A DNA stretch of 64,000 bases. It comes from Actinomycetota bacterium (GTDB taxonomy: Bacteria; Actinomycetota; Acidimicrobiia; Acidimicrobiales; CADCSY01). Location of the stretch: the NCBI GenBank assembly GCA_016781135.1, contig JADDQY010000076.1, positions 48,632 through 112,631 on the forward strand, read 5' to 3'. The notes beneath the pieces were generated by a model, which was not told the origin of the DNA, ran no database searches, and was given only the letters and a program-made list of their open reading frames with translations. Every line of letters begins with the position of its first letter. The stretch's first letter is position 1. The position numbers and the translations under genes are program-made. Below, piece by piece: positions 3,414 to 61,126 of the stretch.

Positions 3414-5383
<1,970 letters not shown>

Positions 5384-5397
5384 GGGCCCCACCGCCC

Positions 5398-5420: not shown

Positions 5421-5547
5421 TTCCGTCGGTGCCCCCGGTGGCTCCGCCAGTGCGAGAGTTGGCCAGACGACCGGCCCGCGAGGGCCGGTCGTCTCGCGTG
5501 CCGGCCTGCGGTGCTCGGTGGTGTCGCTGCTCGGGTAGGGCAGGGGC

Positions 5548-5748: not shown

Positions 5749-5758
5749 GCTCGCCGCG

Positions 5759-5926: not shown

Positions 5927-5998
5927 CCGTAGGAGCTGGCGCGGCGCCCCCATCACCGGATCGGGAAGGGGGCCGGGGTTAGACTGGCCCCTCCGAAG

Positions 5999-8837: not shown

Positions 8838-8969
8838 AGCTCGACGTGCTCCAGCGGACAGGCCCAGCCGTCCCGCTCGCGCTGAACCCTCATCTGGCCG
8901 CTGCCCCGGCCGGGCCGCCAGGCAGGGACAGCTCCCTTCGGCGGCGCCGCCCGCCGGCCGCGGGTCGGA

Positions 8970-44003: not shown

Positions 44004-44038
44004 TCGGAGGCAGGCGCAGGGCCGGGCCCCCTGGCTCC

Positions 44039-44054
44039 CAGAACGTGTGTTCGC
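44039..44054 (+). promoter_or_regulatory. LexA (SOS) box upstream of imuA'
   Basis: cAGAAC-GTGT-GTTCGc matches the actinobacterial SOS box TCGAAC-N4-GTTCGA in 10 of 12 half-site positions. The core GAAC-N4-GTTC occupies 44041..44052, 15 nt before the ATG at 44067. Confidence 0.75.
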
Positions 44055-44066
44055 TAACGTGGGGGG

Positions 44067-44861
44067 ATGGCGTTGGCCCGGCCGAGGGACGTCGAGGCGC
44101 TCCACCAGGCGGGTGAGTGGGCCCGCCCCGTCACCCTGGTCAGCGAGCAGCTGCTGCCGGTGTTGTCGTCCCTCGAGCCCCTCCTGCCCGACGGTGGCCT
44201 GCGCCGGGGCAGCACGGTCACCGTCGATGGCGCGCCAGGGGCCACCACGCTGGCGTTGGCGCTGGGTGCGGCGGCCTCGGCGAGCGGGTCCTGGGTGGCC
44301 GCTGTGGGCCTGCCCTCGCTCGGGCTGTCGGCGGCGGCTGAGCTGGGGGTCGCCCTCGAGCGGATGGTGGTGGTCACCTCCCCGCCGGCCCAGGCGTGGG
44401 CCACGGTGGTGGCCGCCCTGATCGACTCCGTCGAGCTGGTGTGGGTCGGCCTGCCCCGCCGGGTGGCGGCCGGTGATGCCCATCGCCTGGCCGCCCGGGC
44501 CCGCGAGCGCGGCTCGGTGCTGGTGCCCCTCGCTGCTCGGGGCGCCACCGCCACCTGGCGTGCCCGCGGTGCCGCCTGGCCCGAACCCGCTGACATCCGC
44601 CTGGTGGTGTCCTCGACCACCTGGGCCGGGCTGGGGGGCAGCGGCGCCGGCCGCCTGGAGGCTCGCCGGGTTGAGGTGGTCGCCACCGGGAGAGGCGCCG
44701 CCTCCAGGGAGCGGCGGGTGCCGTTGTGGCTGCCCGGCCCCGACGGCCGGGTGCTGGCGTTGGGAGCACCGAGCGCTCCCGTTCTTCGTCGGTTCGACCA
44801 TCTACGACGTGATCCCTTCGACAAAGAACGAGGAGGGGGGAGCCAGGGGGTGGCCGGGTGA
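44067..44861 (+). CDS. imuA': ImuA'-like SOS mutasome accessory protein (degenerate RecA/KaiC-like fold)
   Basis: It contains GSTVTVDGAPGATTLALALGAAASASGSWVAAVGLPSLGLSAAAELGV...ALIDSVELVWVG...RLAARARERGSVLV, a pattern seen in actinobacterial ImuA' proteins. It is preceded by a LexA box, overlaps imuB (GTGA), and dnaE2 lies downstream. Confidence 0.7.
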   Translation: MALARPRDVEALHQAGEWARPVTLVSEQLLPVLSSLEPLLPDGGLRRGSTVTVDGAPGATTLALALGAAASASGSWVAAVGLPSLGLSAAAELGVALERMVVVTSPPAQAWATVVAALIDSVELVWVGLPRRVAAGDAHRLAARARERGSVLVPLAARGATATWRARGAAWPEPADIRLVVSSTTWAGLGGSGAGRLEARRVEVVATGRGAASRERRVPLWLPGPDGRVLALGAPSAPVLRRFDHLRRDPFDKERGGGSQGVAG

Positions 44862-46486
44862 CGCGTGGGAGCGCGGTGAGGCGGGGGAGCGCAGTGCGCA
44901 CCCTGGTGGCGTGGTGTCCCGACTGGCCGGTGGTGGCCGCTGGGGTGGCGCTCGACCAGGCGGCGGCGGTCGTGGGAGGGGCCGGTGGGCGGGTGTTGGC
45001 GTGCTCGGCTGCGGCTCGGGCCCAGGGGGTGCGACGGGGCCTGCGTCGGCGCGAGGCCGAGGCGCGTTGTACGGGCCTGCGGATGCTGGCGGCCAACCCC
45101 GACGGCGAGGCTCGGGCCTTCGAGGCGGTGGCGGCGGCGCTGGCGTCGCTCAGCCCCCGACTGGAGGTGCTGCGACCCGGTACCGTCGCCCTGCCCACCC
45201 GGGGCCCGTCGCGGTACTTCAGGGGCGACCGTGCCCTCACCGACCGGGCCGCCGCTCTCGGTGAGGAGGTCCTGGCCGGTCGGGGGCACTGCCAGGTGGG
45301 AGTGGCCGACGGGCTCTTCGCCGCTGTCCTGGCCGCTCGGCGGGGTGTGGTGGTCGAGCCCGGGGGCAGCGCCGCCTTCTTGGCCCCGTTCCCCGTGGCC
45401 GCCCTCGACCTCGCCGCCTCACTCGGCACCTCGTCTTCCGCCGAGCTCGCCGAGCTCGCCAACCTGTTTCGCCGCCTCGGCCTGCGCACTCTCGGCGACG
45501 TCGCCGCCCTGCCCGCTGCCCAGCTCGCCGGACGCTTCGGCCCAGCCGGCGTCAGGGTGGCCACCTGGTGCCGGGGACTCGACGACCGCCCACCCCACCC
45601 CCGGGTCCCCCCGCCCGATCTCACGGTGGTCGCCGAGCTCGACCCCCCGGCCGACCGGGTCGAGGCCGCCGCCTTCGTGGCCCGGGCGCTGGCCACCGAG
45701 TTGGGCGAGCGCCTGGCAGCGGCGGGGCAGACCTGCACCCGGGTGCGCATCGAGGCCGAGACCGAGCACGGCGAGACGCTGTCGCGGCGCTGGCGGACCG
45801 AGGGCCTCGTGCTGGCCGTCGCCCTGGTGGAGCGGGCCCGTTGGCAGCTCGACGGATGGTGCAACGGGACCGGGGCGGTGCGACCCACCGGCGGCATCGC
45901 CGTCCTGCGGCTGGTGCCCGAGGAGGTCCGAGCCGATCGGGGCCTCCAGCTCGGCTTCTGGGGCGGGGCCACCGCGGCCGACGAGCGGGCCGCCCGGGGG
46001 GTCGCCCGCCTCCAGGGCCTGCTCGGTCCCGAGGCGGTGACCGTCCCCCGGTGCCGCGGCGGCCGTGGCCCCGCCGAGCAGGTGGTGCTGGTGCCCGCCC
46101 ATGCCGGCGTGCCGGTGGGGAACGGGTCGAGCCACGCCTCGGCGGCCGAGGTGCAGGCTCCGTGGCCCGGTCGGATCCCGCCACCGTCACCCGCGTTGCT
46201 CACCGTCGCCGTTGCCCCGCCCGTCGAGGTGCTCGACGCCACCGGTGCGGCGGTGGCGGTCACCGGGCGGGGGATCGCCACCGCGGCCCCAGCGCGGATC
46301 TCGGTGGCCGGCGGCTCGTGGTTCGAGGTGGTGGCCTGGGCCGGCCCGTGGCCGGTCGACGAGCGCTGGTGGGACCAGGCTGCCCGCTGCCGCCGCGCCC
46401 GTATCCAGGTGGCCACCGCCGCCGGCGAAGCCCACCTCCTCATCCTCAACGGCGGCCGCTGGGCCCTCGAGGCCACCTACGATTGA
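44858..46486 (+). CDS. imuB: ImuB, Y-family-polymerase-like SOS mutasome protein
   Basis: The N-terminus RTLVAWCPDWPVVAAG ... VLACSAAARAQGVRRGLRRREAEARC is typical of ImuB. The product is 542 aa and sits between imuA' and dnaE2. Confidence 0.85.
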   Translation: MTRGSAVRRGSAVRTLVAWCPDWPVVAAGVALDQAAAVVGGAGGRVLACSAAARAQGVRRGLRRREAEARCTGLRMLAANPDGEARAFEAVAAALASLSPRLEVLRPGTVALPTRGPSRYFRGDRALTDRAAALGEEVLAGRGHCQVGVADGLFAAVLAARRGVVVEPGGSAAFLAPFPVAALDLAASLGTSSSAELAELANLFRRLGLRTLGDVAALPAAQLAGRFGPAGVRVATWCRGLDDRPPHPRVPPPDLTVVAELDPPADRVEAAAFVARALATELGERLAAAGQTCTRVRIEAETEHGETLSRRWRTEGLVLAVALVERARWQLDGWCNGTGAVRPTGGIAVLRLVPEEVRADRGLQLGFWGGATAADERAARGVARLQGLLGPEAVTVPRCRGGRGPAEQVVLVPAHAGVPVGNGSSHASAAEVQAPWPGRIPPPSPALLTVAVAPPVEVLDATGAAVAVTGRGIATAAPARISVAGGSWFEVVAWAGPWPVDERWWDQAARCRRARIQVATAAGEAHLLILNGGRWALEATYD

Positions 46487-46911
46487 TGGTTCGGGCGTCG
46501 TGGTCGCACCTGTTCGCACACATCAGCGACCAGAACGGCGAGGTCGTGGTCACTACCGTGGTGCCGGTGTCGACGCTGCCCCCGCCCTCCGAGCCCGAGG
46601 GTCAAGCGACACCCACCGAGGCCGAGGAGCGGGTCGGGCGCCTGACCGACCTCCTACGGGACCTGCGCCGACGACTGGAGGGCTACCAGGGCATCGTCGA
46701 CCCGACCCCAGATGACCTGGCGACGTGGGACACCGTGCTCTACACCTACGACGATGCTCTGGTCGCCATCGCCGACCTCCTCGACCTCGAGGTCCCGCCC
46801 GAGGCGCGCGACGAGATGAACGTCGAGCAGCGCAGCGAGCTCGAAGCCGCACTGGCGGGTGCCGGCATCGACCTGACCGCGCCGGGCACGACGACCACTC
46901 GAAGCGACTGA
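46486..46911 (+). CDS. Hypothetical 141-aa protein, start/stop-overlapped with imuB; shares a module with the 21282..21989 protein
   Basis: ATG 46486 overlaps the imuB TGA (TGATG). GC3 is high throughout. It corresponds to the last 141 codons of track ORF 45568..46911. The module reads RRRLEGYQGIVDPTPDDLATWDTVLYTYDDALVAIADLLDLEVPPEARDEMNVEQRSELEAALAGAGIDL. Confidence 0.55.
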   Translation: MVRASWSHLFAHISDQNGEVVVTTVVPVSTLPPPSEPEGQATPTEAEERVGRLTDLLRDLRRRLEGYQGIVDPTPDDLATWDTVLYTYDDALVAIADLLDLEVPPEARDEMNVEQRSELEAALAGAGIDLTAPGTTTTRSD

Positions 46912-46931
46912 CCAGTCACATGACTGCGGTC
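46910..46931 (+). terminator. Stem-loop at the stop codon of the 46486..46911 ORF
   Basis: GACCAGTCA-ca-TGACTgcGGTC is an inverted repeat with a 2-nt bulge. Confidence 0.25.
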
Positions 46932-47270
46932 GTGAACGACGACCGTGTTCCGGGGCCTGGCTGATCCCACCGGCGGTCGGCAGGTGGGGACGAGACCACC
47001 GGGGTCACCTGGGAGATCAGCCGAGCAGGGCCAGCGATGCCTGCTGACCGTGGTCCACGGTCGACCACCGAGGGCAGGTACCAGTCGGCAACGACCGGGG
47101 GGCCGTTGATCCTCTCCAGCCTCGAGACCCCCTCGAGAGCGGTGAGGCCCTGACCGGCTGACCGCCCCACGACCGGTTTCGAGGCAGGTGGCGACGGTAG
47201 AGGTCGCCCTGCGCGGATGCTCGACAAACTCGGGCGGGCACGACGGGCCAGGCGACGGTAGCGTGCTCTG

Positions 47271-48767
47271 GTGGTCGGAGGCGAGGAGGAAACCATCGAA
47301 AACCCCGTCGTCCTCGTCTCCCACCGCGGCCCGGTGCAGTTCGCTCGCCAGGGCAACGAGCGCACCGTCGATCGGGGTGGCGGGGGCCTGGTCACCGCCC
47401 TGTCGGGGTTGATCCCCGATCTCGACCATGCCGTGTGGGTCTGTGCCGCACTCACCGACGAGGACGAGGTCGTGGCGGCCGAGCACGACGGCGCGGGGTT
47501 CGACGTGGGGGAGGGCAACGACCACGTACGCCTGCGCATGGTGGTGGTCGACGACGAGACCCACGACCAGTTCTACAGCATCGTCGCCAACCCGCTCCTG
47601 TGGTTCATCCAGCACCAGCTTTGGGACACCAAGGTGTCGCCGGAGCTCACCCGGCGCGAGCACGACGCCTTCACCGACGGCTACGTTGAGGTCAACCGCA
47701 GCTTCGCCCACGCCGTGGTGGAAGAGGTCGAGGCCAGCGGTGGCGCCGCCACCGTCATGGTCCACGACTACCACTTCTACCTGCTCCCCGAGCTGGTCCG
47801 GGAGCGTTGCCCGGAGGTCTTCCTCCACCACTTCGTGCACATCCCCTGGCCTTCGTCCGACGCCTGGCGGGTGCTGCCTCCGGTGATGCGCGAGGCGATC
47901 TTCAACGGGATGCTCGGCAACGATGTGGTTGCGTTCCACACCGAGCGCTCCGCCCGCAACTTCGTCCTCGGCTGCGAGGAGCTGCTCGACCTGCCCGTCG
48001 ACCTCGATGCCCGCAGCGTCACCGTGGGCGATCGCTCGGTGGTGGCCCGGGCCTACCCCATCTCCATCGATGCCGACGACTTCGAGGCCCGGGCGGCGTC
48101 GGATCCCGTGACCGAGCACCGGGAGGCGCTCGAGAGCACCCGCCGCGACCACCTGCTGCTGCGAGTCGACCGCACCGATCCCTCGAAGAACATCGTGCGG
48201 GGCTTCCGGGCCTTCGACCTGCTGCTGCGTGACCATCCCGAGCTGGCCGGGCAGGTGAGCTTCCTCGCCCTGTTGCAGCCCAGCCGCCAGGACGTCGAGG
48301 AGTACGCCGACTACACCGCCTTGATCCGGCGGGTGGTGGCCGACGTCAACCTCGAGCACGGCACCGCCGACTGGCAGCCCATCGACCTGCGCCTCGAGGA
48401 GGACCTCGACCTGGCCGTGGCCGCCTACACCCTCTTCGACGTGCTGGTGGTGAACGCCGTCGTCGATGGCATGAACCTGGTGGCCAAAGAGGCGGTGCTG
48501 GTCAACCGGCGCAACGGGGTGCTGGCGCTGTCGGAGAACGCCGGGGCCCACGAGGAGCTGGGGAAGCTGGCCGTGACCCTGTACCCGTTCGACCTCCAGC
48601 AACAGGCTGATGCCCTCTACGAGGCCATCACCATGCCCACCGACGAGCGCCGTCGCCGGCGGGAGGCGGCCGCCGACCATGTGCGCAGCCACGACGTGTC
48701 GGGCTGGTTCGGCGCTCAGCTCGACGACATCGCCTGCCTGCGGAGCTTGCCGGAGGCGTCGACGTAG
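47271..48767 (+). CDS. otsA: Alpha,alpha-trehalose-phosphate synthase (GT20)
   Basis: It contains VVLVSHRGPVQF...GGLVTAL, HDYHFYLLP, FLHHFVHIPWPS, RVDRTDPSKNI and VVNAVVDGMNLVAKE. Confidence 0.9.
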   Translation: MVGGEEETIENPVVLVSHRGPVQFARQGNERTVDRGGGGLVTALSGLIPDLDHAVWVCAALTDEDEVVAAEHDGAGFDVGEGNDHVRLRMVVVDDETHDQFYSIVANPLLWFIQHQLWDTKVSPELTRREHDAFTDGYVEVNRSFAHAVVEEVEASGGAATVMVHDYHFYLLPELVRERCPEVFLHHFVHIPWPSSDAWRVLPPVMREAIFNGMLGNDVVAFHTERSARNFVLGCEELLDLPVDLDARSVTVGDRSVVARAYPISIDADDFEARAASDPVTEHREALESTRRDHLLLRVDRTDPSKNIVRGFRAFDLLLRDHPELAGQVSFLALLQPSRQDVEEYADYTALIRRVVADVNLEHGTADWQPIDLRLEEDLDLAVAAYTLFDVLVVNAVVDGMNLVAKEAVLVNRRNGVLALSENAGAHEELGKLAVTLYPFDLQQQADALYEAITMPTDERRRRREAAADHVRSHDVSGWFGAQLDDIACLRSLPEAST

Positions 48768-48779
48768 GGCTCGACGGGG

Positions 48780-48793
48780 CGAACGTATGTTCG
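48780..48793 (+). promoter_or_regulatory. LexA (SOS) box upstream of dnaE2
   Basis: CGAAC-GTAT-GTTCG has both pentamer half-sites perfect against TCGAAC-N4-GTTCGA. It lies 14 nt upstream of the GTG start at 48807. Confidence 0.8.
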
Positions 48794-48806
48794 GTACCCT
48801 CGACGT

Positions 48807-51800
48807 GTGGGCTGGCGCAACCCTCCCGTCCCGTGGTCGCAGCTCGAGCAGCGGCTCTCTGACTGCAAGCCGCCGGGAGCCGACGGCGGTGACAGTCCGG
48901 CCTGGTCGGCCCGGCGCCCGACCTACCAGGTGCCACCCGAGCTGGCGGTGCGAGTCCCCGGTCGTGCCGACGGGGGCGTGGCCTACGCCGAGCTGCACTG
49001 CCACTCCAACTTCAGCTTCCTCGACGGCGCCTCCCACCCCGAGGAGCTGGTGGAAGAGGCCGTCCGCCTCGGCCTGACGGCGCTGGCGCTCACCGACCAC
49101 GACGGGCTCTATGGGGTGGTCCGCTTCGCCGAGGCGGCCAAGGAGGTGGGCCTGCCCACGGTGTTCGGTGCCGAGCTCACCCTCGACGCCCCGAGCGGGC
49201 GCAGCGGGATGCCCGACCCCGACGGTCGTCACCTGGTGTTGCTGGCTGGCGATCCCGAGGGCTACGCCCGCCTGAGCCGGGCCATCAGCGACGCCCAGCT
49301 GGCCGGGGGCGAGAAGGGCCGGCCCCGCACCGACCTGGCGGCGCTGGCGGCGGCCGGGGGAGGCCACTGGCAGGTGCTCACCGGCTGCCGCAAGGGGGTC
49401 GTGCCCGCCGCCCTGGTCGCCGCCGGACCCGCCGCCGCCGCTCGCGAGCTGGCCCGGCTGGTGGAGGCCTTCGGGCGCGACCGGGTGGCAGTGGAGGTCT
49501 GGGACCACGGCGATCCCCTCGACTCGGCCCGCAACGACGCCCTGGTGGCGCTGGCGGCTGGGGCCAGGGTGGAGGTGGTGGCCACCAACAACGTCCACTA
49601 CGCCATCCCCGCCCGCCGGCCGGTGGCGACCGCCCTGGCCGCGGTGCGCTCCCAGCGCAGCCTCGACGAGCTCGACGGGTGGCTGCCGGCCGCCGCCACC
49701 GCCTGCCTGCGCTCGGGGGCCGAGCAAGCCCGGCGTCTGGCCCGCTACCCCGGTGCCGTCGAGTACGCCGCCGAGCTGGGGGGGGCGTGTGCGTTCGACC
49801 TGGCCCTGGTCGCTCCCCGCTTGCCCGACTTCCCCGTGCCGCCCGGTCACACCGAGATGACGTGGCTGCGGGCGCTGGCGGAGCGGGGGGCGGAGGAGCG
49901 CTACGGCCCCCGGGGGGCCGAGCGGGTGGCGGGGGCGTGGGAGCAGATCGACCACGAGCTCGCGGTGATCGAGGAGCTCGGCTTCCCCGGCTACTTCCTC
50001 GTCGTCCACGACATCGTCGAGTTCTGCCGCGGCCACGACATCTACTGCCAGGGCCGGGGCTCGGCCGCGAACTCGGCTGTCTGCTACGCGCTCGGCATCA
50101 CCAACGCCGACGCGGTGGGCCTGGGGCTGCTGTTCGAACGCTTCTTGTCGCCGGAGCGTGACGGTCCCCCCGACATCGACGTCGACATCGAGAGCGAGCG
50201 CCGGGAGGAGGTCATCCAGGAGGTCTACCGCCGCTACGGGCGCGACCGGGCTGCCCAGGTGGCCAACGTCATCACCTACCGGCCCCGCTCAGCAGTGCGG
50301 GAGATGGGCAAGGCCCTCGGCCACCCGCCAGGGGAGGTCGACGCTTGGTCCAAGCAGCTCGACCACGCCCTGCCGGCGGCGGACAGGAGCGAGATTCCCG
50401 AGGACGTCTTGGCCCTGGCCCGGGAGGTGCAGCACTTCCCCCGCCACCTCGGCATCCACTCCGGGGGGATGGTGATCTGCGACCGCCCGGTGGTCGAGGT
50501 GTGCCCGGTGGAGTGGGGGCGCATGGCCAACCGCACCGTGTTGCAGTGGGACAAGGACGACTGCGCCGCGGTGGGCCTGGTCAAGTTCGACCTGCTGGGC
50601 CTCGGCATGCTGTCGGCCATCCACCGCTGCGTCGACCTGATCGCCGCCCACGAGGGGGTGAAGATCGACCTGGCCGCGCTCCCTCAGGACCCGGCGGTCT
50701 ACGACATGCTGTGCCGGGCCGACTCGATCGGAGTGTTCCAGGTGGAGAGCCGGGCCCAGATGGCCACCCTGCCCCGGCTGCGCCCGCGGTGCTTCTACGA
50801 CCTGGTGGTCGAGGTCGCCCTCATCCGCCCCGGCCCCATCCAGGGGGACTCGGTGCACCCCTACCTGCGGCGGCGCAACGGCACTGAGGCCGTCACCTAT
50901 CTGCACCCCCTGCTCGAGCGGTCGCTGGCCAAAACCCTCGGGGTGCCGCTGTTCCAGGAGCAGCTGATGCAGATGGCCATCGACGTGGCCGGCTTCTCGC
51001 CGGCCGAGGCTGACCAGCTTCGCCAGGCCATGGGGTCGAAGCGCTCCAGCGAGCGGATGGTCCGCCTGCGGGGGCGGCTGTTCGCCGGCATGGCCGAGCG
51101 GGGGATCACCGGGGAGGTGGCCGAGGTCATCTACGACAAGCTCGCCGCCTTCGCCAACTTCGGCTTCCCCGAGAGCCACTCGGTGAGCTTCGCTTACCTG
51201 GTCTACGCCAGCGCCTGGCTCAAGCACCACCACCCGGCGGCCTTCTGTGCCGGGTTGCTCAACGCCCAGCCCATGGGGTTCTGGTCGCCCCACACCCTGG
51301 TGCGCGACGCTCGCCGCCACGAGGTGGTGGTGCGTCGCCCCGACGTCAACGCTTCGGAGGCGACCTCGACCCTCGAAGCCTGCGAGGCCAGCAGCGGCGG
51401 GATGGCGCTGCGCCTCGGGCTCGACCAGGTGCGCAATGTGGGCGACGACCTGGCCGGGCGCATCGCCGCCGGGCGGCCCTACGCGTCCATCGACGACCTG
51501 GTGGGCCGCACCGGGGCCGGGCTCGCCGCCGTCGAAGCCCTGGCCACCGCCGGAGCCTTCGCTGGCCTGGGCCTCGATCGGCGCGCAGCGCTGTGGGCTG
51601 CCGGCGCGTGCGCCCAGGCCCGCCCCGGACGCCTGCCCGGGGTGGTCACGGGGGCCGAGGCGCCCCCGCTGCCTGCGTTGGCCCCGGCCGAGGAGACCGC
51701 CGCTGATCTGTGGGCCACCGGCATCAGCGCCGAGGTCCACCCCACCGAGCACGGGCGGGCTCACCTCGACGTGCTCGGAGTACTCACCGCCGAGGCCCTG

Positions 51801-52091
51801 GCCGGTGCCGAGCCCGGTGCTCGGGTGCTCGTCGGCGGGGTGGTCACCCACCGCCAGCGCCCGGCCACGGCGTCGGGCACGGTGTTCGTCAACCTCGAGG
51901 ACGAGACCGGCCTGATCAACGTGATCTGCTCGGCGGGGTTGTGGGAGCGCTACCGGGCCGTGGCCCGCACCGCTCCCGCCCTGCTGGTCCGGGGCACCCT
52001 CGAGCGGGCCGAGGGGGTGGTCAACGTCGTGGCCGACCGCCTGGAGCTCCTGCCGCTCGGTGCCCCCACCCGCTCTCGCGACTTCCGCTGA
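48807..52091 (+). CDS. dnaE2: Error-prone DNA polymerase DnaE2 (ImuC)
   Basis: The 1094-aa product has the PHP domain YAELHCHSNFSFLDGASHPEELV and the Pol III alpha core (GRGSAANSAVCYALGIT, DIDVDIES, FQVESR, LIRPGP). The LexA box and imuA'/imuB context also support the call. Confidence 0.95.
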   Translation: MGWRNPPVPWSQLEQRLSDCKPPGADGGDSPAWSARRPTYQVPPELAVRVPGRADGGVAYAELHCHSNFSFLDGASHPEELVEEAVRLGLTALALTDHDGLYGVVRFAEAAKEVGLPTVFGAELTLDAPSGRSGMPDPDGRHLVLLAGDPEGYARLSRAISDAQLAGGEKGRPRTDLAALAAAGGGHWQVLTGCRKGVVPAALVAAGPAAAARELARLVEAFGRDRVAVEVWDHGDPLDSARNDALVALAAGARVEVVATNNVHYAIPARRPVATALAAVRSQRSLDELDGWLPAAATACLRSGAEQARRLARYPGAVEYAAELGGACAFDLALVAPRLPDFPVPPGHTEMTWLRALAERGAEERYGPRGAERVAGAWEQIDHELAVIEELGFPGYFLVVHDIVEFCRGHDIYCQGRGSAANSAVCYALGITNADAVGLGLLFERFLSPERDGPPDIDVDIESERREEVIQEVYRRYGRDRAAQVANVITYRPRSAVREMGKALGHPPGEVDAWSKQLDHALPAADRSEIPEDVLALAREVQHFPRHLGIHSGGMVICDRPVVEVCPVEWGRMANRTVLQWDKDDCAAVGLVKFDLLGLGMLSAIHRCVDLIAAHEGVKIDLAALPQDPAVYDMLCRADSIGVFQVESRAQMATLPRLRPRCFYDLVVEVALIRPGPIQGDSVHPYLRRRNGTEAVTYLHPLLERSLAKTLGVPLFQEQLMQMAIDVAGFSPAEADQLRQAMGSKRSSERMVRLRGRLFAGMAERGITGEVAEVIYDKLAAFANFGFPESHSVSFAYLVYASAWLKHHHPAAFCAGLLNAQPMGFWSPHTLVRDARRHEVVVRRPDVNASEATSTLEACEASSGGMALRLGLDQVRNVGDDLAGRIAAGRPYASIDDLVGRTGAGLAAVEALATAGAFAGLGLDRRAALWAAGACAQARPGRLPGVVTGAEAPPLPALAPAEETAADLWATGISAEVHPTEHGRAHLDVLGVLTAEALAGAEPGARVLVGGVVTHRQRPATASGTVFVNLEDETGLINVICSAGLWERYRAVARTAPALLVRGTLERAEGVVNVVADRLELLPLGAPTRSRDFR

Positions 52092-53374: not shown

Positions 53375-53447
53375 GGGCCGTTAGCTCAGTTGGCAGAGCA
53401 CTTGCATGACGCGCAAGGGGTCGGGGGTTCGAATCCCTCACGGCCCA
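53375..53447 (+). tRNA. tRNA-Val (anticodon GAC)
   Basis: Manual cloverleaf: acceptor GGGCCGT/ACGGCCC, D-arm GCTC-AGTTGGC-AGAGC, anticodon stem CTTGC/GCAAG with loop AT-GAC-GC, variable loop GGGTC, T-arm GGGGG-TTCGAAT-CCCTC, discriminator A. No full CCA is encoded. Confidence 0.9.
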
Positions 53448-53525
53448 CCCGGAACCGCAGGTCAGAGACAGCACGCTGACCACGACGAGCGGATGTGTGC
53501 GGACCCGGTTCATGCTGGACACCGT

Positions 53526-53597: not shown

Positions 53598-53681
53598 CGT
53601 GTCGAGGTGAATCACCCCTGAGCAGGCGCCACCTTCTTCGCTTGCGGGTTGTCATACCCGCGGATCCGGAGGAGGCCGTCG

Positions 53682-54101
53682 GTGCTCGTGGAGTTGAGAC
53701 TGGTGGAGCAGCGCTATCAGGCGGTGTTGGAGGTCCTCAATGAGGGCGGCGGTGACCGACGTGGCCCGCCGGTATGGGGTAGCCCGCCAGACGGTTCATG
53801 GTTGGTTGCTCAAGTACGCGGCCAGCGGCTTGGCTGGGCTGGCCGACAGGACCTCGAGGCCGTCATCGTGCCCGCACCAGATGATCCCCCTCGTGGAGGC
53901 CCGGATCGTCGAGCTGCGCCGGGCGCACCCGGGGTAGGGTCCGCGCACGATCCTGTTCTGGCTCGACAAGGAGGGCGTGGCGCGTTGCCGGGCCGCACGT
54001 CGGCGGAGCGGTGCCTGGTTCGTCACGGGCTGGTCACCCCCCAGGCTCGCCGGCGCAAGCGAGCGGACGCGAGTGCTACGAGGAGGCCTGCCAGGCGATG
54101 A
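53682..54101 (+). pseudogene. IS481-family transposase, N-terminal remnant (frameshifted, nonsense-interrupted, DDE domain missing)
   Basis: The reading path (V)LVELRLVEQRYQAVLEVLNEG / AVTDVARRYGVARQTVHGWLLKYAASGLAGLADRTSRPSSCPHQMIPLVEARIVELRRAHPG*GPRTILFWLDKEGVA / ERCLVRHGLVTPQARRRKRAD is spread over two frames. An in-frame TAG at 53935-53937 replaces the conserved Trp of HPGWGPRTI. Nothing resembling the catalytic domain follows. Confidence 0.7.
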
Positions 54102-54882: not shown

Positions 54883-56193
54883 GTGCCGCCCCGGAGCTCG
54901 CCGGCGACTCGGGGAGCGGCGTCAGAGCGCGGGGCGCTAGGAGGCCCATCCCGTCCTCGGCCCCCCCTCGGCTGGGTCCCGTGGGTGGTCGTCGCCGTCG
55001 CCCTCGTCCTCGGGTGGTGGTCGAAGGCTCGCTGCCTCGGCGACGGGGGCTGGGAAGGCGGCGAACAGTTCCACCGCTACTGCTACAGCGACCTCGTCGC
55101 CCTCTGGCTCCGCCCAGGCCTCGCCGAGGGGGGCATCCCCTACCTCGACCAGCCGCTCGAATACCCACCGCTCATCGGCGCCCAGCTGTGGGCCACGGCG
55201 CTGGTCACCCGGGCTGGGGGCGGAGGGGCCGCAACCTTCTACAACCTCAACGCCGTGCTCAACGCCGCCTTCGTCGTGGCGACGTTGGCCCTGCTGCGGC
55301 GGTTGCAGCTGCCCACCAGCAGGCAGCTGTGGTGGGCGGCAGCCCCTCCACTCGTCCTCTACGCCTCCTTGAACTGGGATGCGCTGCCGGTGCTGCTCCT
55401 CGTGCTCGCCGTCGTCCTGCACGTGGCCGGGCGGGATGCGGCCGCCGGCGTGGCCGCCGGCCTCGGTGCCGCCGCCAAGCTCTTCCCGGTGCTGCTCGTC
55501 CCGCTGGTCGTCATCGCCCGACTCCGCCAGCGCGACCTGGGTGCCGCTGCCACCCACGCCGGAGGCGCGGCCGCCGCCTGGGCAGTCGTGAACGTCCCCC
55601 TCGCCCTCGTTGCCGTGGAGGGGTGGAGCCGCTTCTTCCACCTGAACCGCGAACGTGGGGCCAACAGCGCGACCCTCTGGGCTCTGGCCGCCGAGCTCGA
55701 CCTTGTGCGGCTCGACCGGTCGGCGCTCAACCGGGCCAGCGCGCTCGCCTTCGCCGCCGGCGCCCTGCTCATCCTCGCCCTCGGTGGGCGGCGCCGCCCC
55801 CCAGCCGCGACCTGGTCGCTCCTCCTGCCCGTGCTCGCCTGGTTCCTCCTCACCAACAAGGTGTTCTCACCGCAGTACGACGTGTGGCTGGTCCCCCTGC
55901 TGGCCCTACTCCTTCCCGGCACTGCGCCCTTCGCCGCCTTCGTGGCCGCCGACCTCGCCGTGTTCACCACCGAGTTCGCCTATCTGGGGGCGCGGGCCGG
56001 CGTGGGGCCCGATCTCGGGTTCGGGGGGCTGGGGGCGGCGATCGTCTTTCGCGCCGCCGTGCTCGTGTGGATCATCGTCGTGTCGTTGCGACGACCCACG
56101 CCCGGGCCTCCAGCGGCCGGCCCTGGCTGCTCAGCGCCAGGTGTCGAGCCACATCCGGGTGTCGAGCCCGGACTTGGGCAGCTCCACCCCTGA
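54883..56193 (+). CDS. Polytopic membrane protein, GT-C-type glycosyltransferase-like (GT87/DUF2029-like mannosyltransferase suspected)
   Basis: It has at least 9 predicted TM segments. YSDLVALW...GIPYLDQPLEYPPLIG and AAKLFPVLLVPLV resemble DUF2029/GT87 proteins from memory only. The start is uncertain. Its 3' end overlaps the convergent pmt gene by 63 nt. Confidence 0.55.
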   Translation: MPPRSSPATRGAASERGALGGPSRPRPPLGWVPWVVVAVALVLGWWSKARCLGDGGWEGGEQFHRYCYSDLVALWLRPGLAEGGIPYLDQPLEYPPLIGAQLWATALVTRAGGGGAATFYNLNAVLNAAFVVATLALLRRLQLPTSRQLWWAAAPPLVLYASLNWDALPVLLLVLAVVLHVAGRDAAAGVAAGLGAAAKLFPVLLVPLVVIARLRQRDLGAAATHAGGAAAAWAVVNVPLALVAVEGWSRFFHLNRERGANSATLWALAAELDLVRLDRSALNRASALAFAAGALLILALGGRRRPPAATWSLLLPVLAWFLLTNKVFSPQYDVWLVPLLALLLPGTAPFAAFVAADLAVFTTEFAYLGARAGVGPDLGFGGLGAAIVFRAAVLVWIIVVSLRRPTPGPPAAGPGCSAPGVEPHPGVEPGLGQLHP

Positions 56194-57606
56194 CCAGATC
56201 GGCAGGAAGTACACCGACGCCACCACGGCGAGCGCGGCGATCACCCCCGGAAACCAGCGCCATCGCGGCGACGCGGCTGCCTGGGCGGAGAGGTAGGCCA
56301 CGCTCATGGCGACGAAGGGAACGAGAGGAGTTGCGTAGAAGAAGTAACCGTCCTTGCCGGTCAGCAGCCACGGCAGATACTGGCCGAGCAAGAAGACCAG
56401 AAGGACGAGGGCCGAGCGACGGCGCCGGACGAGCGCTGACCAGGCGACCACCAGGTAGGCGAGGAGGGCGGTCCACCAGACGACGGGGTTGCCGACCCCG
56501 ACGATCTTGGCCCGGTTGCCGACACCCACGGCGCACGGCTCACCGGCCGACTCTTGCCCGGTGGTGCAGCGCTCGAAGTAGTACAGGACGGGCCGGGTCA
56601 TCAGCGGCCAGGTGGTGGGCGAGGAGCGATAGGGGTGGGTCGTCGGCAACCGCTGGTGGTAGTCGACCAGTTCGAGCTGCTCCTCCCACCACACCCGGGC
56701 GCGCTCGGCCATCCCGACCTCGCAGCCTCCCTGCGGGCACCGGTCGCGCCCGGCATCGGAGGCCTGGTAGTTGGTGAACCAGCCGGCGTAGCTGAGGACG
56801 TAGACGGCGGTCGGCAGCCCGAGCAGGCACATCGCCGACACCCCCACCCGGCGCGCCAGCTCCCGTGCGCCGGCGTGCTCGCCTCGAAGGTCCCAGAGCT
56901 GCCGCCCGACGACGACGGCGAGGGCGGCGCCGGCCGCCAGCGCACCCGACCACTTGGTGGCCACTCCCAGACCAAAGGCGACGCCGGCGAGCGCCAGGGT
57001 CGGCCCCGTCCGGCCCGGGCGGTCGAGGGCCAGGACCATGAGCCAGAAGCCGGTCACGACGAAGAGCCCGAGGAAGACGTCGAGCATGGCGATCCTGCTC
57101 ATGGTCAGGGCGAGCCCGTCGACGGCGACGAGCAGTGAAGCCAGCGCCGCCAGCCACCGTCGACGGAACAGCTGGAAGGCGGCAAGGTAGGTCACGAGGA
57201 CCGTCAGCGTCCCCGCCACGGCGCTCGCCACCCGCCAACCCAGCGGCTCGAAGCCGATGACGGCGATCCCCGCGGCGATGAGCCACTTCCCGAGGGGAGG
57301 ATGAGCAGGCCGATCCACCTCCACTCCCGTGTCCAGCATGGAGCGGGCGTCGTTGGCGTAGTAAACCTCGTCGAAGTAGAGGCGGGTGGGCTCGGAGAGG
57401 CTGACGAAGCGCAGCGTTGCCGCTACGACGACCACGGCGACGGGTACGAGCAGACCGAGCCGCGACCCGAGGACCCCCCACCGACCGTCTGGCTCGCCGC
57501 TCCCCGGTGTCCGCCGACCCGGCTCGGCTTCGGCGCGCCGACGCCGCCGGCGACCGGCGGAGGGGCTGGGATCAGGGTTTGCTGGTGCCGCTCCGGCGAG
57601 CGTCAA
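56131..57606 (-). CDS. pmt: Protein O-mannosyltransferase (GT39; phospholipid-carrier-dependent glycosyltransferase)
   Basis: LYFDEVYYANDARSML... HPPLGKWLIAAGIAVIG ... is the GT39 loop-1 DE motif region. The protein is polytopic and has the C-terminal PMT_4TMC-like part (...YFFYATPLVPF...). A TTG start at 57606 lies 2 nt after the upstream stop, so the start is uncertain. Confidence 0.85.
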   Translation of the reverse strand: MTLAGAAPANPDPSPSAGRRRRRRAEAEPGRRTPGSGEPDGRWGVLGSRLGLLVPVAVVVVAATLRFVSLSEPTRLYFDEVYYANDARSMLDTGVEVDRPAHPPLGKWLIAAGIAVIGFEPLGWRVASAVAGTLTVLVTYLAAFQLFRRRWLAALASLLVAVDGLALTMSRIAMLDVFLGLFVVTGFWLMVLALDRPGRTGPTLALAGVAFGLGVATKWSGALAAGAALAVVVGRQLWDLRGEHAGARELARRVGVSAMCLLGLPTAVYVLSYAGWFTNYQASDAGRDRCPQGGCEVGMAERARVWWEEQLELVDYHQRLPTTHPYRSSPTTWPLMTRPVLYYFERCTTGQESAGEPCAVGVGNRAKIVGVGNPVVWWTALLAYLVVAWSALVRRRRSALVLLVFLLGQYLPWLLTGKDGYFFYATPLVPFVAMSVAYLSAQAAASPRWRWFPGVIAALAVVASVYFLPIWSGVELPKSGLDTRMWLDTWR

Positions 57607-57608
57607 AC

Positions 57609-57866
57609 CTATCGACGGGTCTGGAACTCCGTCTCGGTCTCGGTGACGGTGCCGGTCTCGGTGGCGACCTCTTCGGTCTTGGTCTCCGTCTCTGTCTCGG
57701 TCGGCCCGAGCGTCTCGGTGGCGGTCTCGGTATCGATCTCGAGCTCGGTCTCGGACACCGTCTCGGTGACCTCCACGGTGCCCTCGTCGTTCTCGCAGGC
57801 GGTGGCGCCGAGCGAGAGCCCGGTGACGAGCAGGCCGGCCGCGGCGTTCCTCCAGGCAGAGTTCAT
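57609..57866 (-). CDS. Putative lipoprotein with Thr/Glu-rich repeats
   Basis: The product reads MNSAWRNAAAGLLVTGLSLGATAC|ENDEG..., with a signal peptide and a lipobox-like GATAC. It continues TVEVTETVSETELEIDTETATETLGPTETETETKTEEVATETGTVTETETEF. A Shine-Dalgarno-like AAGGGA lies upstream of the ATG. Confidence 0.6.
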   Translation of the reverse strand: MNSAWRNAAAGLLVTGLSLGATACENDEGTVEVTETVSETELEIDTETATETLGPTETETETKTEEVATETGTVTETETEFQTRR

Positions 57867-57940
57867 GATCGGGTCAGTCCCTTTCGCGAAGGGCGCACCG
57901 GGACCTTCCCTGGCGCTGCTCCAGTCTAGGCGACCAACAG

Positions 57941-58726
57941 CTACCGGAGCGCAGCCCGAGCTCGGCGGCCACGTCGCCGGCGTGGCGCAGCGGTCAGCGA
58001 TGCTCGCCGGGTGCGGCGCAGCCGCTCGCCTACGCCCCAGCGCGTGACCAACACGAAGGCTTCGAGCACGATCAGCAACGACATCTTGGAGGTGCCCCGG
58101 GTGCGCTCGACGAAGTGAATGGGCAACTCGAGGACGCGGCCTCCGAGGCGGGAGATGCGGTAGGCCATCTCGATCTGAAATCCGTAGCCCTCGGCGTTGA
58201 CCTCGTTCAGGTCGAGCTGGCCGAGGGCTTCGGCGTCGTAGGCCCGAAAGCCCGAGGTGGCATCGGCGACGTCGAGGCGCAGGAGCCGGGCGGCGTAGCG
58301 GTTCCCCCAGCGCGACAGCAGGCGTCGACGGAGCGACCAGGCCGGGATGCGCCCCCCGGGGACGTACCTCGAGCCGATCACCAGCGCCGCCCCCTCCTCG
58401 AGCGCGCCGAGCATCGCCGGCAACACGGCGGGGTCGTGGGAGAGGTCGCTGTCCATCTCCACCAGCGCCCGGTAGCCCCCGGCCAGGCCCTCTCGGAACC
58501 CGGCCCGGTAGGCACCGCCCAGGCCCGACTTCGCCGGCCGGACCATGACGTTGACCCGTCCGAGCTCGGCGCCCACCGCCTTGGCCACCTCGGCGGTCCC
58601 GTCGGGGCTCGAGTCGTCGACCACGAGCACGTCGGCCTCAGGTACGGCTGCCCGTAGGCGGCGAAGGACCTCCTCGAGGTTCTCGGCCTCCTGGTAGGTC
58701 GGCAGGATGACCAGCGTCGGCTTCAT
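57941..58726 (-). CDS. ppm1: Polyprenol-phosphate mannose synthase (GT2, Ppm1/DPM1-like)
   Basis: It contains LVILPTYQEAENLEEVL, LVVDDSSPDGTAE, VEMDSDLSHDP, GSRYVPGG and SGFRAYD. Confidence 0.88.
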   Translation of the reverse strand: MKPTLVILPTYQEAENLEEVLRRLRAAVPEADVLVVDDSSPDGTAEVAKAVGAELGRVNVMVRPAKSGLGGAYRAGFREGLAGGYRALVEMDSDLSHDPAVLPAMLGALEEGAALVIGSRYVPGGRIPAWSLRRRLLSRWGNRYAARLLRLDVADATSGFRAYDAEALGQLDLNEVNAEGYGFQIEMAYRISRLGGRVLELPIHFVERTRGTSKMSLLIVLEAFVLVTRWGVGERLRRTRRASLTAAPRRRRGRRARAALR

Positions 58727-58852
58727 GGCGCCCCACCCGCGGCCGACCGGAGTGCGGGGGGCTCCACCTTGGGAAGCTAGCGCGGGGAGAGGCCTTGCTC
58801 GTCGCCACGGTCACGCCCGGCAGGTGGTGTAGGCGACGGTCATCGCGTCGGC

Positions 58853-58997
58853 CTAGTGGACGACCCGGGTGTGCTGGGCCCACACGACGCGGCGCCGGGC
58901 TGCTGGAAGATCGTGCGCACGAGCGTGGCGACCATCGACTGGGCGGACTTCGGGACCCGGGTCAACAGGGCGCGCTTGTAGTGCGTGCGGCATCTTG
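58853..58997 (-). pseudogene. IS256-family (mutator-type) transposase, short internal/C-terminal remnant
   Basis: On the minus strand, ...RCRTHYKRALLTRVPKSAQSMVATLVRTIFQQPGAA matches the conserved CxxHFxRNLL..VPK....VA..LRTIF.QPD block. A frameshift then leads to ...VVWAQHTRVVH*. There is no N-terminal or DDE region. Confidence 0.6.
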
Positions 58998-59320
58998 CAA
59001 GCCCCCGTGAGCGTCGAGGCGATCGTCCATCTTGTTGTTGACCACCGCGTTCTTCCTCTCGCTCGTCTTCGCAAGGACTGCAAGAGGCTGACGCGGTGGT
59101 CATCGCGTCCGGGGGACCTCCGCCCGCTGCACCACTACCTGGGACGCAACTGTCGACCGCGCCACGCAGTGTTCCGCTCTGGCTCGCTAGAGTGCGTGCG
59201 TACCGGCGCCAGCACAGCCACTGTTGTCGCATCCCGACTAGCTGCTGCACAACAGTCGCCGTGCACCTCCCACTGCGGGAGCGACGTCACAAGGTTCGAG
59301 TCACGTTCCAGGAGGGAAAC

Positions 59321-61126
59321 ATGCGCGGTCGGGCGACGGGCTGGGCGATTGGCGTGGTGCTGGCCCTTGCCTGCACCCTCGTCGCTCCCGAGGCGAGCGC
59401 CCAGGAGTCGGCCCAGTCGGCGCAGCGGTTGCGCGTGGCGATCCACAGCTACGAGAACAACCTGACGCCCTTCACCCTCACCCTGACCACCTTTCCGGTC
59501 ACCGCCGACATGGTGATGCTCGTGTACGACTCGCTGTTCTACTCACAGGCCAGCGAGGACCCCGAGCCGTGGCTGGCCGAGTCGGCGAGCGTTAGCGACG
59601 ATGCCAGAACCTGGACGGTCACCCTGCGTGAGGGGGTTACGTGGCATGACGGGCGGCCCCTGACGGCAGAGGACGTGGCCTTCAGCTTCGACTACTACCA
59701 GCAGCAGGCCGGTTCTTCCGGTCGTTACGCCCACCATGTGTTCGACGTGCCCGCCCTCGACCGTTCGGAGGTCGTCGACCAACGCACCATCCGGTTCCAC
59801 TTCAAGGATCCCGCGCCGCAGTTCGACATCATGCCCGGCGCCGACCTGCCCATCATCCCCAAGCACGCGTGGCAAGGCGTGACCGAGCCGAGCAAGGCCA
59901 CGTCCGAGCTCCCTGTCGGGTCGGGGCCCTACAAGCTCGTCGAGATGGTCTCGGACCAGCGCTACCGCCTGGTGGCCAACGAGGCCTACTTCAAGGGGCG
60001 GCCGACGGTCGACGAGATCGAGATGCCCGTGGTGAAGGACCCCGCTGCCGCTTTCGCCGCCCTAAGGACCGGTGAGGTCGGCTTCGTCACCCGCAACGTC
60101 CCCTCGGAGCTGGTGGGACAGTTCGGCGGCTCTTCGGGCGTGGCGGTCGCGGCCGCCACCAAGTTCGAGTCGACGCAGCTCAACTTCAACGCCCGCAAGT
60201 CCCCCTGGAACAGTGCTGCCGTGCGCAAGGCCATCAGCTTGGGCACCGACACCCAGGCCCTGGTCGACACCGTGCTCCTCGGCAGGGGACGACCCGGACG
60301 GGACGGCTTCCTCCACCCCGACTCTCCCTGGGCCATGCCCAACGGGAGGCACGAGCTCGACCGGGCCGAGGCCGAGCGCCTGCTCGACGAGGCGGGCTAT
60401 GCCGACAGGGACGCCGACGGGGTCCGCAGGGCGGCCGATGGCAGCCGCCTCGAGCTCAGCGTCTTGGTGTCGTCGTTCGAGCCCCAGGACCTCCGGGCGG
60501 TACAGCTCATGTCCCAGCAGCTCGAGCCCCTCGGGGTCCGGGTGGCCCCAGAGGCGCTCGACCCGGTCAGCCTGCGTCAGCGTCGTCAGGCGCCCCCTGG
60601 TCAGGTCCCGGGCTTCGACGCCTACATGTCGACCCTCGAGACGCACGCCCACGTCGACCCCGACGGGCTCTACTACTTCTTCCACTCCCCTGGACCGAAG
60701 GGCTTCGGCGGGGTGATCACCGGCTGGGGCAACCCTCGTTTCGACCAGCTGACCGAGCAGGCGGCGGTGAGCGGCAAGGACGAGCGCAAGCCGATGCTTC
60801 ACGAGGCGCAGGAGATCCTGGCCGAGGAGGCGCCGGCCATCGTGTTCTGGTACCGCAGCGGCGAGTGGGCCTACCGCCCCGACGCCTACTCCGGCTGGGT
60901 GCCCGACCCCGGCCAGGGGATCCTCGGCAAGCGCTCGTTCCTCCCCGAGTACGTCAGGGCCCGCAGCGTGGCCACCGGCGCCGGAGAGGGGTCGGCGGGT
61001 GAGGCGCCGGGCGACGCCGGCGGTGGGGGGGTGGGCCCGGCGCTGGCGATCGGTGCGGTGGTGGTGCTCGGCCTCGTCGGCGCCACCGTCGCCCGCCGTC
61101 GCCGGGTCGAGCCCGACGACGAGTAG
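59321..61126 (+). CDS. ABC transporter substrate-binding protein, family 5 (peptide/nickel type), with an extra C-terminal TM anchor
   Basis: GGAGGG lies 5 nt upstream of ATG 59321. The signal peptide is MRGRATGWAIGVVLALACTLVAPEASA. The SBP_bac_5 pattern is present (LAESASVSDDARTWTVTLREGVTWHDGRPLTAEDVAFSF). The C-terminus reads GGGGVGPALAIGAVVVLGLVGATVARRRRVEPDDE. Confidence 0.88.
   Translation: MRGRATGWAIGVVLALACTLVAPEASAQESAQSAQRLRVAIHSYENNLTPFTLTLTTFPVTADMVMLVYDSLFYSQASEDPEPWLAESASVSDDARTWTVTLREGVTWHDGRPLTAEDVAFSFDYYQQQAGSSGRYAHHVFDVPALDRSEVVDQRTIRFHFKDPAPQFDIMPGADLPIIPKHAWQGVTEPSKATSELPVGSGPYKLVEMVSDQRYRLVANEAYFKGRPTVDEIEMPVVKDPAAAFAALRTGEVGFVTRNVPSELVGQFGGSSGVAVAAATKFESTQLNFNARKSPWNSAAVRKAISLGTDTQALVDTVLLGRGRPGRDGFLHPDSPWAMPNGRHELDRAEAERLLDEAGYADRDADGVRRAADGSRLELSVLVSSFEPQDLRAVQLMSQQLEPLGVRVAPEALDPVSLRQRRQAPPGQVPGFDAYMSTLETHAHVDPDGLYYFFHSPGPKGFGGVITGWGNPRFDQLTEQAAVSGKDERKPMLHEAQEILAEEAPAIVFWYRSGEWAYRPDAYSGWVPDPGQGILGKRSFLPEYVRARSVATGAGEGSAGEAPGDAGGGGVGPALAIGAVVVLGLVGATVARRRRVEPDDE

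Follow-up and report, generated by a model that had tools for sequence, protein, structure and literature searches.

A small Thr/Glu-rich lipoprotein gene accompanies the protein O-mannosyltransferase gene in one clade of actinobacterial Pmts

Is the O-mannosyltransferase of some actinobacteria encoded together with its own acceptor, or with a subunit of its own? The question is raised by contig JADDQY010000076.1 of an Actinomycetota bacterium (GenBank assembly GCA_016781135.1, Acidimicrobiales), of which positions 48,632 to 112,631 were analyzed; this 64,000-nucleotide (nt) stretch is referred to below as the window. A first-pass annotation, made from the sequence alone, had proposed a compact cassette in which a polyprenyl-phosphate-mannose synthase gene (ppm1) and a protein O-mannosyltransferase gene (pmt) flank a gene for an 85-residue Thr-rich lipoprotein. 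The three minus-strand open reading frames (ORFs) are present where it had placed them, and its assignment of the three enzymes is upheld by Pfam and structure matches, with mannose as the presumed sugar. As the annotation had stated for model organisms, ppm1 and pmt are unlinked in Streptomyces coelicolor (sco1423 and sco3154; PMC5882110). We report here that the small ORF is a real, conserved gene that is exclusively linked to one clade of Pmt proteins, and we tentatively favor the view that its product is an acceptor for that enzyme.

Loci for comparison came from a Pmt search of a genome collection, which yielded 79, and from protein look-ups and a DNA-pattern scan, which supplied the others. 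In the window and in 15 of these loci (L001, L002, L003, L005, L006, L007, L080, L081, L084, L086, L091, L093, L094, L095, and L096), the small ORF was directly upstream of pmt on the same strand. The linked loci include those of the cultured Modestobacter sp. VKM Ac-2977 and Blastococcus goldschmidtiae. The genes outside the module are unrelated from locus to locus, and because the module recurs in relatives with such different flanks, its clustering exceeds chance. Of the more distant pmt loci, ~75 in number and including those of Micrococcales, Kineosporiaceae, Actinomycetaceae, and Bifidobacteriaceae and an rsmI-linked locus of Egibacteraceae, none carried such an ORF within ~6 kb. In a neighbor-joining tree, the Pmts linked to the small ORF formed one clade, sister to an Egibacteraceae/Euzebyales group. 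Two clade members whose gene context was unknown, P0118 and P0019, were predicted from the tree to carry the small ORF upstream, and both did. A hand-made DNA pattern of the small ORF, used to scan metagenomes, returned one contig, and there too pmt adjoined it. The synteny called for by the first-pass annotation is thus seen as a small ORF-pmt pair in 16 loci, with ppm1 linked in 9 of them. The complete three-gene cassette is present in the window, but the core unit of the family is the small ORF with pmt, ppm1 being absent within 5 to 6 kb in several members.

The small ORF could itself be an accident, an open frame to which a GC-rich hexanucleotide repeat between the ppm1 and pmt genes happens to give rise. 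It has no match in Pfam or NCBIfam, the exact sequences of five clear members (including those of the cultured Modestobacter and Blastococcus) are absent from a collection of 15 billion proteins, and 4 or 5 of the 6 frames across this stretch are free of stops in most loci, which makes the open frame worthless as evidence of a gene. Other observations point strongly the other way. A Shine-Dalgarno-like GAAAGG motif (57880-57885) is found 13 nt before the ATG in the window and is invariant, 9 to 14 nt before the ATG, in 9 copies from close relatives, even where the remaining upstream DNA has diverged. Protein alignments showed that residue 24 is a Cys in every member, always behind a hydrophobic core and a basic n-region. 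Among close relatives the ratio of nonsynonymous to synonymous substitution rates (dN/dS) was 0.15 to 0.45, with changes ~3-fold more frequent at third codon positions. The small ORF of the window has a G+C content of 0.93 at these positions. Since one antisense frame uses the same third positions, dN/dS alone cannot fix the strand, and stop-free frames combined with third-position variation were rejected as proof of the reading frame. When the mature parts were aligned and compared with composition- and dipeptide-preserving shuffles, z scores of 6 to 17 were obtained and 0 of 500 shuffles reached the observed score; the likeness is positional (GTVEVTETE, PTETETE, ETETEF) and goes beyond composition. 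The ORF has been kept across lineages whose Pmts share only 45% identity, and the public contigs of six loci list it among their called genes (L080, L081, L086, L091, L093, and L095). On the strength of the GAAAGG/ATG start, the signal peptide with Cys24, the dN/dS values, the shuffle tests, and the six gene calls, we conclude that the small ORF is a real, conserved gene; that it is a noncoding by-product of the repeat is barely conceivable.

The family appeared rare, with only 2 and 8 matches in protein-database searches, but this rarity was rejected as real, since the five clear members are not in the protein collection and their absence makes it an artifact. One weak database match, P0124, is not adjacent to pmt, and two others, P0125 and P0128, appeared on inspection to be low-complexity likenesses. 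A metagenome scan with the alignment pattern of the small protein gave 600 matches, none of which was confirmed, perhaps owing to the low complexity of the query.

The description of the small protein as a predicted lipoprotein is supported: all members (~17 distinct sequences) carry a lipoprotein-type signal that fits the G+LPPv2 pattern, with Cys24 invariant. The B. goldschmidtiae member has a canonical L-A-G-C lipobox. In the window the residue at -3 is Ala, and the sequence A-T-A followed by C is also readable as a signal peptidase I site. The mature part in the window, 62 residues including Cys24, has 32% Thr after Cys24, in line with the one-third estimated earlier, as well as 29% Glu and a net charge of -17. 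Across the family the predicted mature forms range from 59 to 71 residues, 23 to 32% Thr, 29 to 45% Glu, and -17 to -35 in net charge, with one Pro each and at most one aromatic residue. An AlphaFold2 model of the small protein, built from 3 sequences, gave a long β-hairpin (residues 30-52 and 58-81) with a predicted local distance difference test score (pLDDT) of ~80 to 87 and a predicted template modeling score (pTM) of 0.29.

Three loci carry extra copies. L080 has two tandem copies (5203-5460 and 5723-5980) of the small gene, duplicated along with the first pmt codons, and their protein products are identical. L002 has a second copy (8846-9103) beyond the GT87 gene, followed by a weak thioredoxin-like ORF. 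In L081 one Thr/Glu domain occurs twice (4447-4761 and 5678-5926), once behind a lipobox and once behind a transmembrane signal-anchor; the copies are identical at 161 of 171 nt, and the differences in the shared domain are all synonymous. As the L081 paralogue exchanges the lipobox for a transmembrane anchor, what is kept appears to be a membrane-tethered, outward-facing Thr/Glu domain. The extra copies fit an abundant product better than a stoichiometric subunit.

The Pmt of the window matched PF02366 (PMT) with 84 bits against a cutoff of 22.7 and PF16192 (PMT_4TMC) with 63.6 bits against a cutoff of 32.4, and PMT_2 was also above threshold. Its FDEVYY aligns with FDEVHF of yeast Pmt1 (6p25), the DE motif of the first extracytoplasmic loop. 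Because it reached only 162 bits against the NCBIfam equivalog, whose cutoff is 800, we regard it as a divergent GT39 member. The protein has an Arg-rich cytoplasmic tail, variable in length among relatives, and a first transmembrane helix at about residues 50 to 70.

The earlier proposal of translational coupling depends on where pmt starts. The next in-frame start after the TAG of the small ORF is the TTG at 57604-57606, for which the proposed gap of 2 nt holds. It is the only canonical start that keeps both the Arg-rich tail and an intact first transmembrane helix, which makes it a plausible start codon. The next one, a GTG at residue 58, would retain just MVVVAATLRFVSL ahead of the loop, a truncated helix; this start matches the 434-residue product recorded for a 99%-identical relative. 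A GTG was found 21 nt after the small-ORF stop in L003, L006, L007, and L080 and 4 nt after it in L005, giving gaps of ~0 to 25 nt in close relatives where a canonical start can be placed; in more distant loci the called start is 75 to 134 nt after the small ORF. In L001 (3533-3695) and L002 (5920-6055) there is no ATG, GTG, or TTG in the pmt frame between the small-ORF stop and the first helix, possibly reflecting a noncanonical start, a shorter N terminus, or an assembly error. The tight junction is thus conserved among close relatives, where coupling of the two genes is likely, the exact start of pmt being putative. Since the pmt frame is open through the repeat, a fusion of the small ORF to Pmt by frameshifting was considered and rejected on topology, there being no membrane span between the exported Thr/Glu domain and the Arg-rich cytoplasmic tail. 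In L006 (6001-8671), a scaffold of a long-read metagenome-assembled genome (MAG), pmt and the GT87 gene are each split into two frames, by a sequencing indel or as pseudogenes.

The GT2 protein matched Pfam Glycos_transf_2 (E value of 6e-28). Its best solved relative was the Pyrococcus dolichol-phosphate-mannose synthase (5mlz, E value of 9e-32), followed by ArnC enzymes (2e-11), and the alignment to 5mlz takes in VVDDxSPDxT, MDxDLxHxP, and IGSRYVxGG, comprising nucleotide-sugar and DxD motifs. It reached no NCBIfam equivalog, the top partial matches, AglJ and PpgS, being far below their cutoffs. The protein is a Ppm1-like candidate for the polyprenyl-phosphate-mannose synthase, with mannose specificity suggested by sequence similarity. 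Its gene is directly upstream of the small ORF and on the same strand in the window, L001, L002, L003, L007, and L080; it is beyond the GT87 gene in L006, divergent in L091, and beyond the YfhO gene in L096. An element in the spacer, TAGACT/TAGAGT (57923-57928), is kept only where ppm1 precedes the small ORF and is possibly a -10 box. A scan of 55900-59300 with the sigma-70 consensus found no promoter-like sites, and terminator-like sites in the same interval occurred only at the frequency of chance.

The ORF that the first-pass annotation had described as GT-C-like and converging on the cassette passed the Pfam GT87 cutoff (28.0 bits against 25), and its 3' end overlaps that of pmt by 63 nt (56131-56193). 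Its homologues carry PF09594 and are named GT87/DUF2029 by NCBI; its true start is perhaps ~34 codons downstream, as a 100%-identical relative is recorded with 402 residues. Sequence searches of solved structures with this GT87-like protein, alone or as a 60-sequence profile, gave no match. An AlphaFold2 model built with 60 homologues (pLDDT of 89, pTM of 0.87) was compared with Foldseek, which returned the glycosylphosphatidylinositol mannosyltransferase I PIG-M (9wno; template modeling [TM] score of 0.60), ALG3, ArnT, and PimE (9dm7; TM score of 0.52 to 0.60, 20% identity), so that the predicted fold matches GT-C enzymes that depend on dolichyl-phosphate-mannose or polyprenyl phosphates. Residues D70, Y94, D166, and K199 are among the columns invariant across the 60 homologues. 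In position they are similar, and may correspond, to PimE D58, Y92, D160, and K195, which are essential (PMC12041525), and on this basis the second GT-C protein is probably catalytically active.

The convergent partner is a GT87 gene in the window and in L001, L002, L003, L004, L005, L006, L080, L093, and L095, and a YfhO gene in L081, L086, and L096; L091 has none, a RecQ-type helicase gene following pmt instead. The 3' ends of pmt and the GT-C gene usually overlap, with either kind of partner, by 46 to 76 nt in the window, L080, L081, L086, L093, and L095 and by 4 nt in L096. The earlier suggestion that this protein could extend the glycan has a precedent in mycobacteria, where PimE, a GT87 member, is described as the O-mannose elongating enzyme; other GT87 members are presumed to act likewise elsewhere (PMC12757957). 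According to a 2026 preprint, mycobacterial Pmt copurifies with a GT87-like protein and two accessory proteins, and some Paenibacillus GT39 proteins are fused to GT87 (bioRxiv 10.64898/2026.07.15.738315). By analogy, the GT87 protein could be a dimer partner of Pmt instead of an elongating enzyme, and the conserved convergent pair fits either role. Tandem pairs of pmt paralogues, which may be relevant to the idea of Pmt dimers, were observed in L036, L048, L049, L059, and L063 (Kineosporiaceae, a Micrococcales MAG, and a Bifidobacteriaceae MAG).

How might these proteins act together? Enzyme-substrate gene pairs are common in bacterial glycosylation, and the reading that we favor, at somewhat less than even probability, is a conserved module for protein O-mannosylation in which the lipoprotein is a dedicated, membrane-tethered, polyanionic acceptor for Pmt. 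The GT2 enzyme, judging from its homology to dolichol-phosphate-mannose synthases, would make polyprenyl-phosphate-mannose at the cytoplasmic face, and a flippase would carry this donor across the membrane. The 85-residue precursor would be exported, lipidated at Cys24, and relieved of its signal peptide, as its signal peptide, lipobox, and invariant Cys suggest, leaving a 62-residue peptide of ~60% Thr plus Glu and net charge -17 tethered at the outer face of the membrane. Pmt would come from the same transcript, probably by way of translational coupling, and would then transfer mannose to the Thr residues of the lipoprotein, a step suggested by the linkage of the two genes. By analogy with known GT87 enzymes, the convergent GT-C protein (YfhO in some relatives) may extend or decorate the O-mannose or pair with Pmt. 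The outcome would be a polyanionic mini-glycopeptide, heavily mannosylated and anchored in the membrane. We favor this reading because the protein is predicted to be exported and tethered with up to one-third Thr, because enzyme-substrate pairs are familiar, and because both the extra copies and the anchor swap in L081 suit an acceptor. In addition, lipoproteins are a major class of Pmt substrates (PMC6593405, PMC5673659, PMC3460810). A Pmt substrate would be expected to be an exported protein with clustered Ser/Thr in an accessible region, and a predicted extracytoplasmic domain of 23 to 32% Thr agrees with this.

A number of observations weigh against an acceptor. The mapped O-mannosylation sites of actinobacteria lie among Ala, Pro, and Gly and not between glutamates (PMC6593405), and here Thr alternates with Glu. 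The mature domain has a near-constant length, one conserved Pro, one conserved Phe, and the fixed motifs named above, which together with the predicted hairpin would amount to more order than a mucin-like acceptor should have. In the linked clade, Pmt carries no extra positive charge on its extracytoplasmic loops, and an adaptation of their charge to the acidic lipoprotein was accordingly rejected. Since the clade is sister to ordinary rsmI-linked Pmts, this Pmt is probably the general enzyme of the cell and not a dedicated one. No ppm1 is present within 5 to 6 kb in L005, L081, L093, and L095, the small-ORF locus had no match in the RNA runs searched, and the third-codon-position signal is, as noted, common to the sense frame and one antisense frame. 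With its fixed length and its conservation at specific positions, the protein could equally well be an accessory or regulatory subunit of a Pmt complex. Such a subunit would bind Pmt and the second GT-C protein from the periplasmic side and help to select, hold, or gate acceptors, a role like that of MIR domains in eukaryotes or of a β-propeller subunit proposed in mycobacteria. It would account for the single Pro at the predicted turn, the conserved C-terminal Phe, and the predicted hairpin, which is rich in Thr on one face and in Glu on the other. The short gap to pmt agrees with translational coupling and would suit coproduction in stoichiometric amounts, and the small ORF keeps its place beside pmt even in loci in which ppm1 and the second GT-C gene differ. 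The reported mycobacterial Pmt-GT87 complex with its accessory proteins makes this a serious rival, and the Paenibacillus fusions add to its plausibility. However, an acidic, low-complexity subunit of this kind is without precedent, three loci have extra copies of the small gene but no extra full-length pmt, one paralogue has exchanged its lipobox for another type of anchor, the hairpin model comes from 3 sequences with a pTM of only 0.29, and a domain of 23 to 32% Thr beside a Thr-mannosylating active site would probably be modified anyway. We consider a subunit role rather unlikely, if less so than the remaining alternatives.

The lipoprotein might also have a function of its own, such as the binding of divalent cations or water at the membrane surface, and merely share an operon with a general Pmt, the cluster being a matter of gene-order inertia. 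A net charge of -17 to -35 over 59 to 71 residues would be enough to bind cations, the cluster varies in its ppm1 and second GT-C genes, and the sister relationship to housekeeping-type rsmI-linked Pmts, with no second pmt seen in the window, would agree with a general enzyme. Inertia, however, does not sit well with a pair that has remained adjacent, on the same strand, and no more than ~130 nt apart while Pmt diverged to 45% identity and all flanks changed, nor with a small gene that had pmt beside it wherever its flank was readable and that is absent from every locus outside the clade; we regard this explanation as unlikely. A bolder form of the proposal takes the product of the module for a gene-encoded equivalent of lipoteichoic acid or lipomannan, a lipid-anchored, polyanionic, Glu-alternating peptide whose Thr residues carry short mannose chains from Pmt and the second GT-C protein, or else regards the peptide as a new subunit that a bacterial Pmt-GT-C complex cannot do without. 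This we hold to be less likely still.

The positions of the module components are collected in Table 1.

Table 1. Components of the O-mannosyltransferase module in the window
Feature	Position	Strand	Basis
DPM1/Ppm1-like GT2, 261 residues, without C-terminal transmembrane helices	57941-58726	-	Pfam and solved-structure match
74-nt spacer between ppm1 and the small ORF	57867-57940	-	Alignment of 9 copies and sequence reading
Small Thr/Glu-repeat lipoprotein gene, 85 residues	57609-57866	-	Alignments, dN/dS, lipoprotein pattern, shuffles
Predicted signal peptide of the small ORF, residues 1-23	57798-57866	-	
Lipobox Cys24 codon of the small ORF	57795-57797	-	
Mature acidic Thr/Glu domain of the small ORF	57612-57797	-	
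TAG stop of the small ORF	57609-57611	-	
Imperfect 6-nt DNA periodicity (ACC GAG, coding strand) underlying the Thr-Glu alternation	57627-57767	.	Tandem Repeats Finder: period 6, 23 copies, 63% matches
GT39 protein O-mannosyltransferase (Pmt), 491 residues if the start is TTG 57604-57606	56131-57606	-	Pfam PMT, PMT_4TMC, PMT_2
GT87-family GT-C membrane glycosyltransferase, convergent with pmt	54883-56193	+	Pfam GT87, AlphaFold2 fold

The G+C content of the window is 69 to 77% along its whole length, the highest value (0.77) coinciding with the strongest AT skew at 44001-46000. Near-identical DNA was found in soil and sediment metagenome runs, and the closest genomic relatives are MAGs labeled Actinomycetota or Acidimicrobiales. 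Next to the module, a tRNA-Val (GAC) gene at 53375-53449 is followed by short ORFs at 53650-54100, which we take to resemble the N-terminal helix-turn-helix of a transposase and for which Pfam gave no match; this stretch may be a rearrangement scar. Genes for an ImuB-like IMS-family protein, a GT20 trehalose-6-phosphate synthase, and a DnaE2-type DNA polymerase III alpha subunit lie in a row at 44858-52091. On the other side of the module, the gene for an SBP_bac_5 solute-binding protein (59096-61126) adjoins an ABC permease gene. Its product has a C-terminal hydrophobic helix and an Arg-rich tail, from which C-terminal tethering to the membrane would follow. A role for this protein as an LpqW-like regulator was rejected, since an ABC permease gene follows and the gene is not conserved in related loci. 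In other loci, a gene with an MS_channel_1st_1 domain adjoins the module (L002, 3925-4713; L080, 8886-10497; L081, 3620-5595), joined in two of them by a PRC/DUF2382 gene; this arrangement is not present in the window.

The enzymes belong to the known Ppm1/Pmt/GT87 pathway. With the actinobacterial pathway as represented by S. coelicolor SCO1423/SCO3154, Mycobacterium tuberculosis Pmt Rv1002c, and Corynebacterium glutamicum Cg1014, they share a GT2 synthase and a GT39 protein with the loop 1 DE motif and PMT_4TMC domain, and lipoproteins are a main substrate class there. In those organisms, however, the two genes are unlinked and pmt is typically beside rsmI, as in L082, whereas in the window they form a cluster in which a small lipoprotein gene separates them and a second GT-C gene converges on pmt. 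As with the mycobacterial partners of Pmt (PimE and the Rv0051 type), a GT87-family GT-C protein is functionally tied to Pmt, the tie here being a conserved convergent gene pair with overlapping ends in which YfhO takes the place of the partner in three relatives. The Rv0051-type partner is said to be without catalytic residues; here D70 and K199, which may correspond to the PimE Asp and Lys, are invariant in 60 homologues.

Dedicated glycosyltransferase-substrate pairs include Aah with AIDA-I, pilin with PilO/TfpO, and serine-rich repeat adhesins with their Gtf genes. They resemble the present locus in that a Ser/Thr-rich exported protein is encoded beside its presumed glycosylating enzyme, but they use other glycosyltransferase families and large adhesin or pilin substrates, the candidate here being a 62-residue acidic lipopeptide with a GT39 enzyme. 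In Firmicutes, a three-component extracytoplasmic glycosylation system (GT2 CsbB/GtlA, flippase GtcA, and GT-C YfhO/GtlB) decorates teichoic acids. Alike are the combination of a GT2 lipid-sugar synthase with a GT-C enzyme acting on a membrane-anchored polyanion and the presence of YfhO in L081, L086, and L096; the polyanion there is poly-glycerol-phosphate, whereas here it would be a gene-encoded Glu-rich peptide, and no GtcA-like flippase was seen. The ppm operon of C. glutamicum (ppm1-ppm2/lnt; PMC3460810) also links polyprenyl-phosphate-mannose synthesis genomically with lipoprotein maturation and glycosylation, but its partner gene encodes a lipoprotein N-acyltransferase, neither pmt nor a substrate. 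In the literature searched, the gene clustering, the Thr/Glu lipoprotein family, its exclusive association with a single Pmt clade, and the alternation of GT87 with YfhO as convergent partner are apparently undescribed.

That the family was missing from a large protein collection suggests that small genes of this type are easily overlooked. A synthetic operon of a GT39 gene plus reporter has been used in C. glutamicum (PMC11727336), and the natural cassette, which resembles it, could serve as a compact reporter system. If the product were similar to lipoteichoic acid, it would provide for cation buffering, hydration, or the control of wall enzymes on the membranes of actinobacteria living in soil and rock. 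What protein O-mannosylation is for in these bacteria is still called enigmatic, and no consensus acceptor site is known (PMC12757957, PMC6593405); a small gene that has remained next to pmt throughout a clade offers a natural starting point. Strains of Modestobacter and Blastococcus that carry the pair are in culture, which makes the question open to direct test. The protein would be either an acceptor coproduced with its enzyme or a missing subunit of the Pmt complex now described in mycobacteria, and either answer would be informative.

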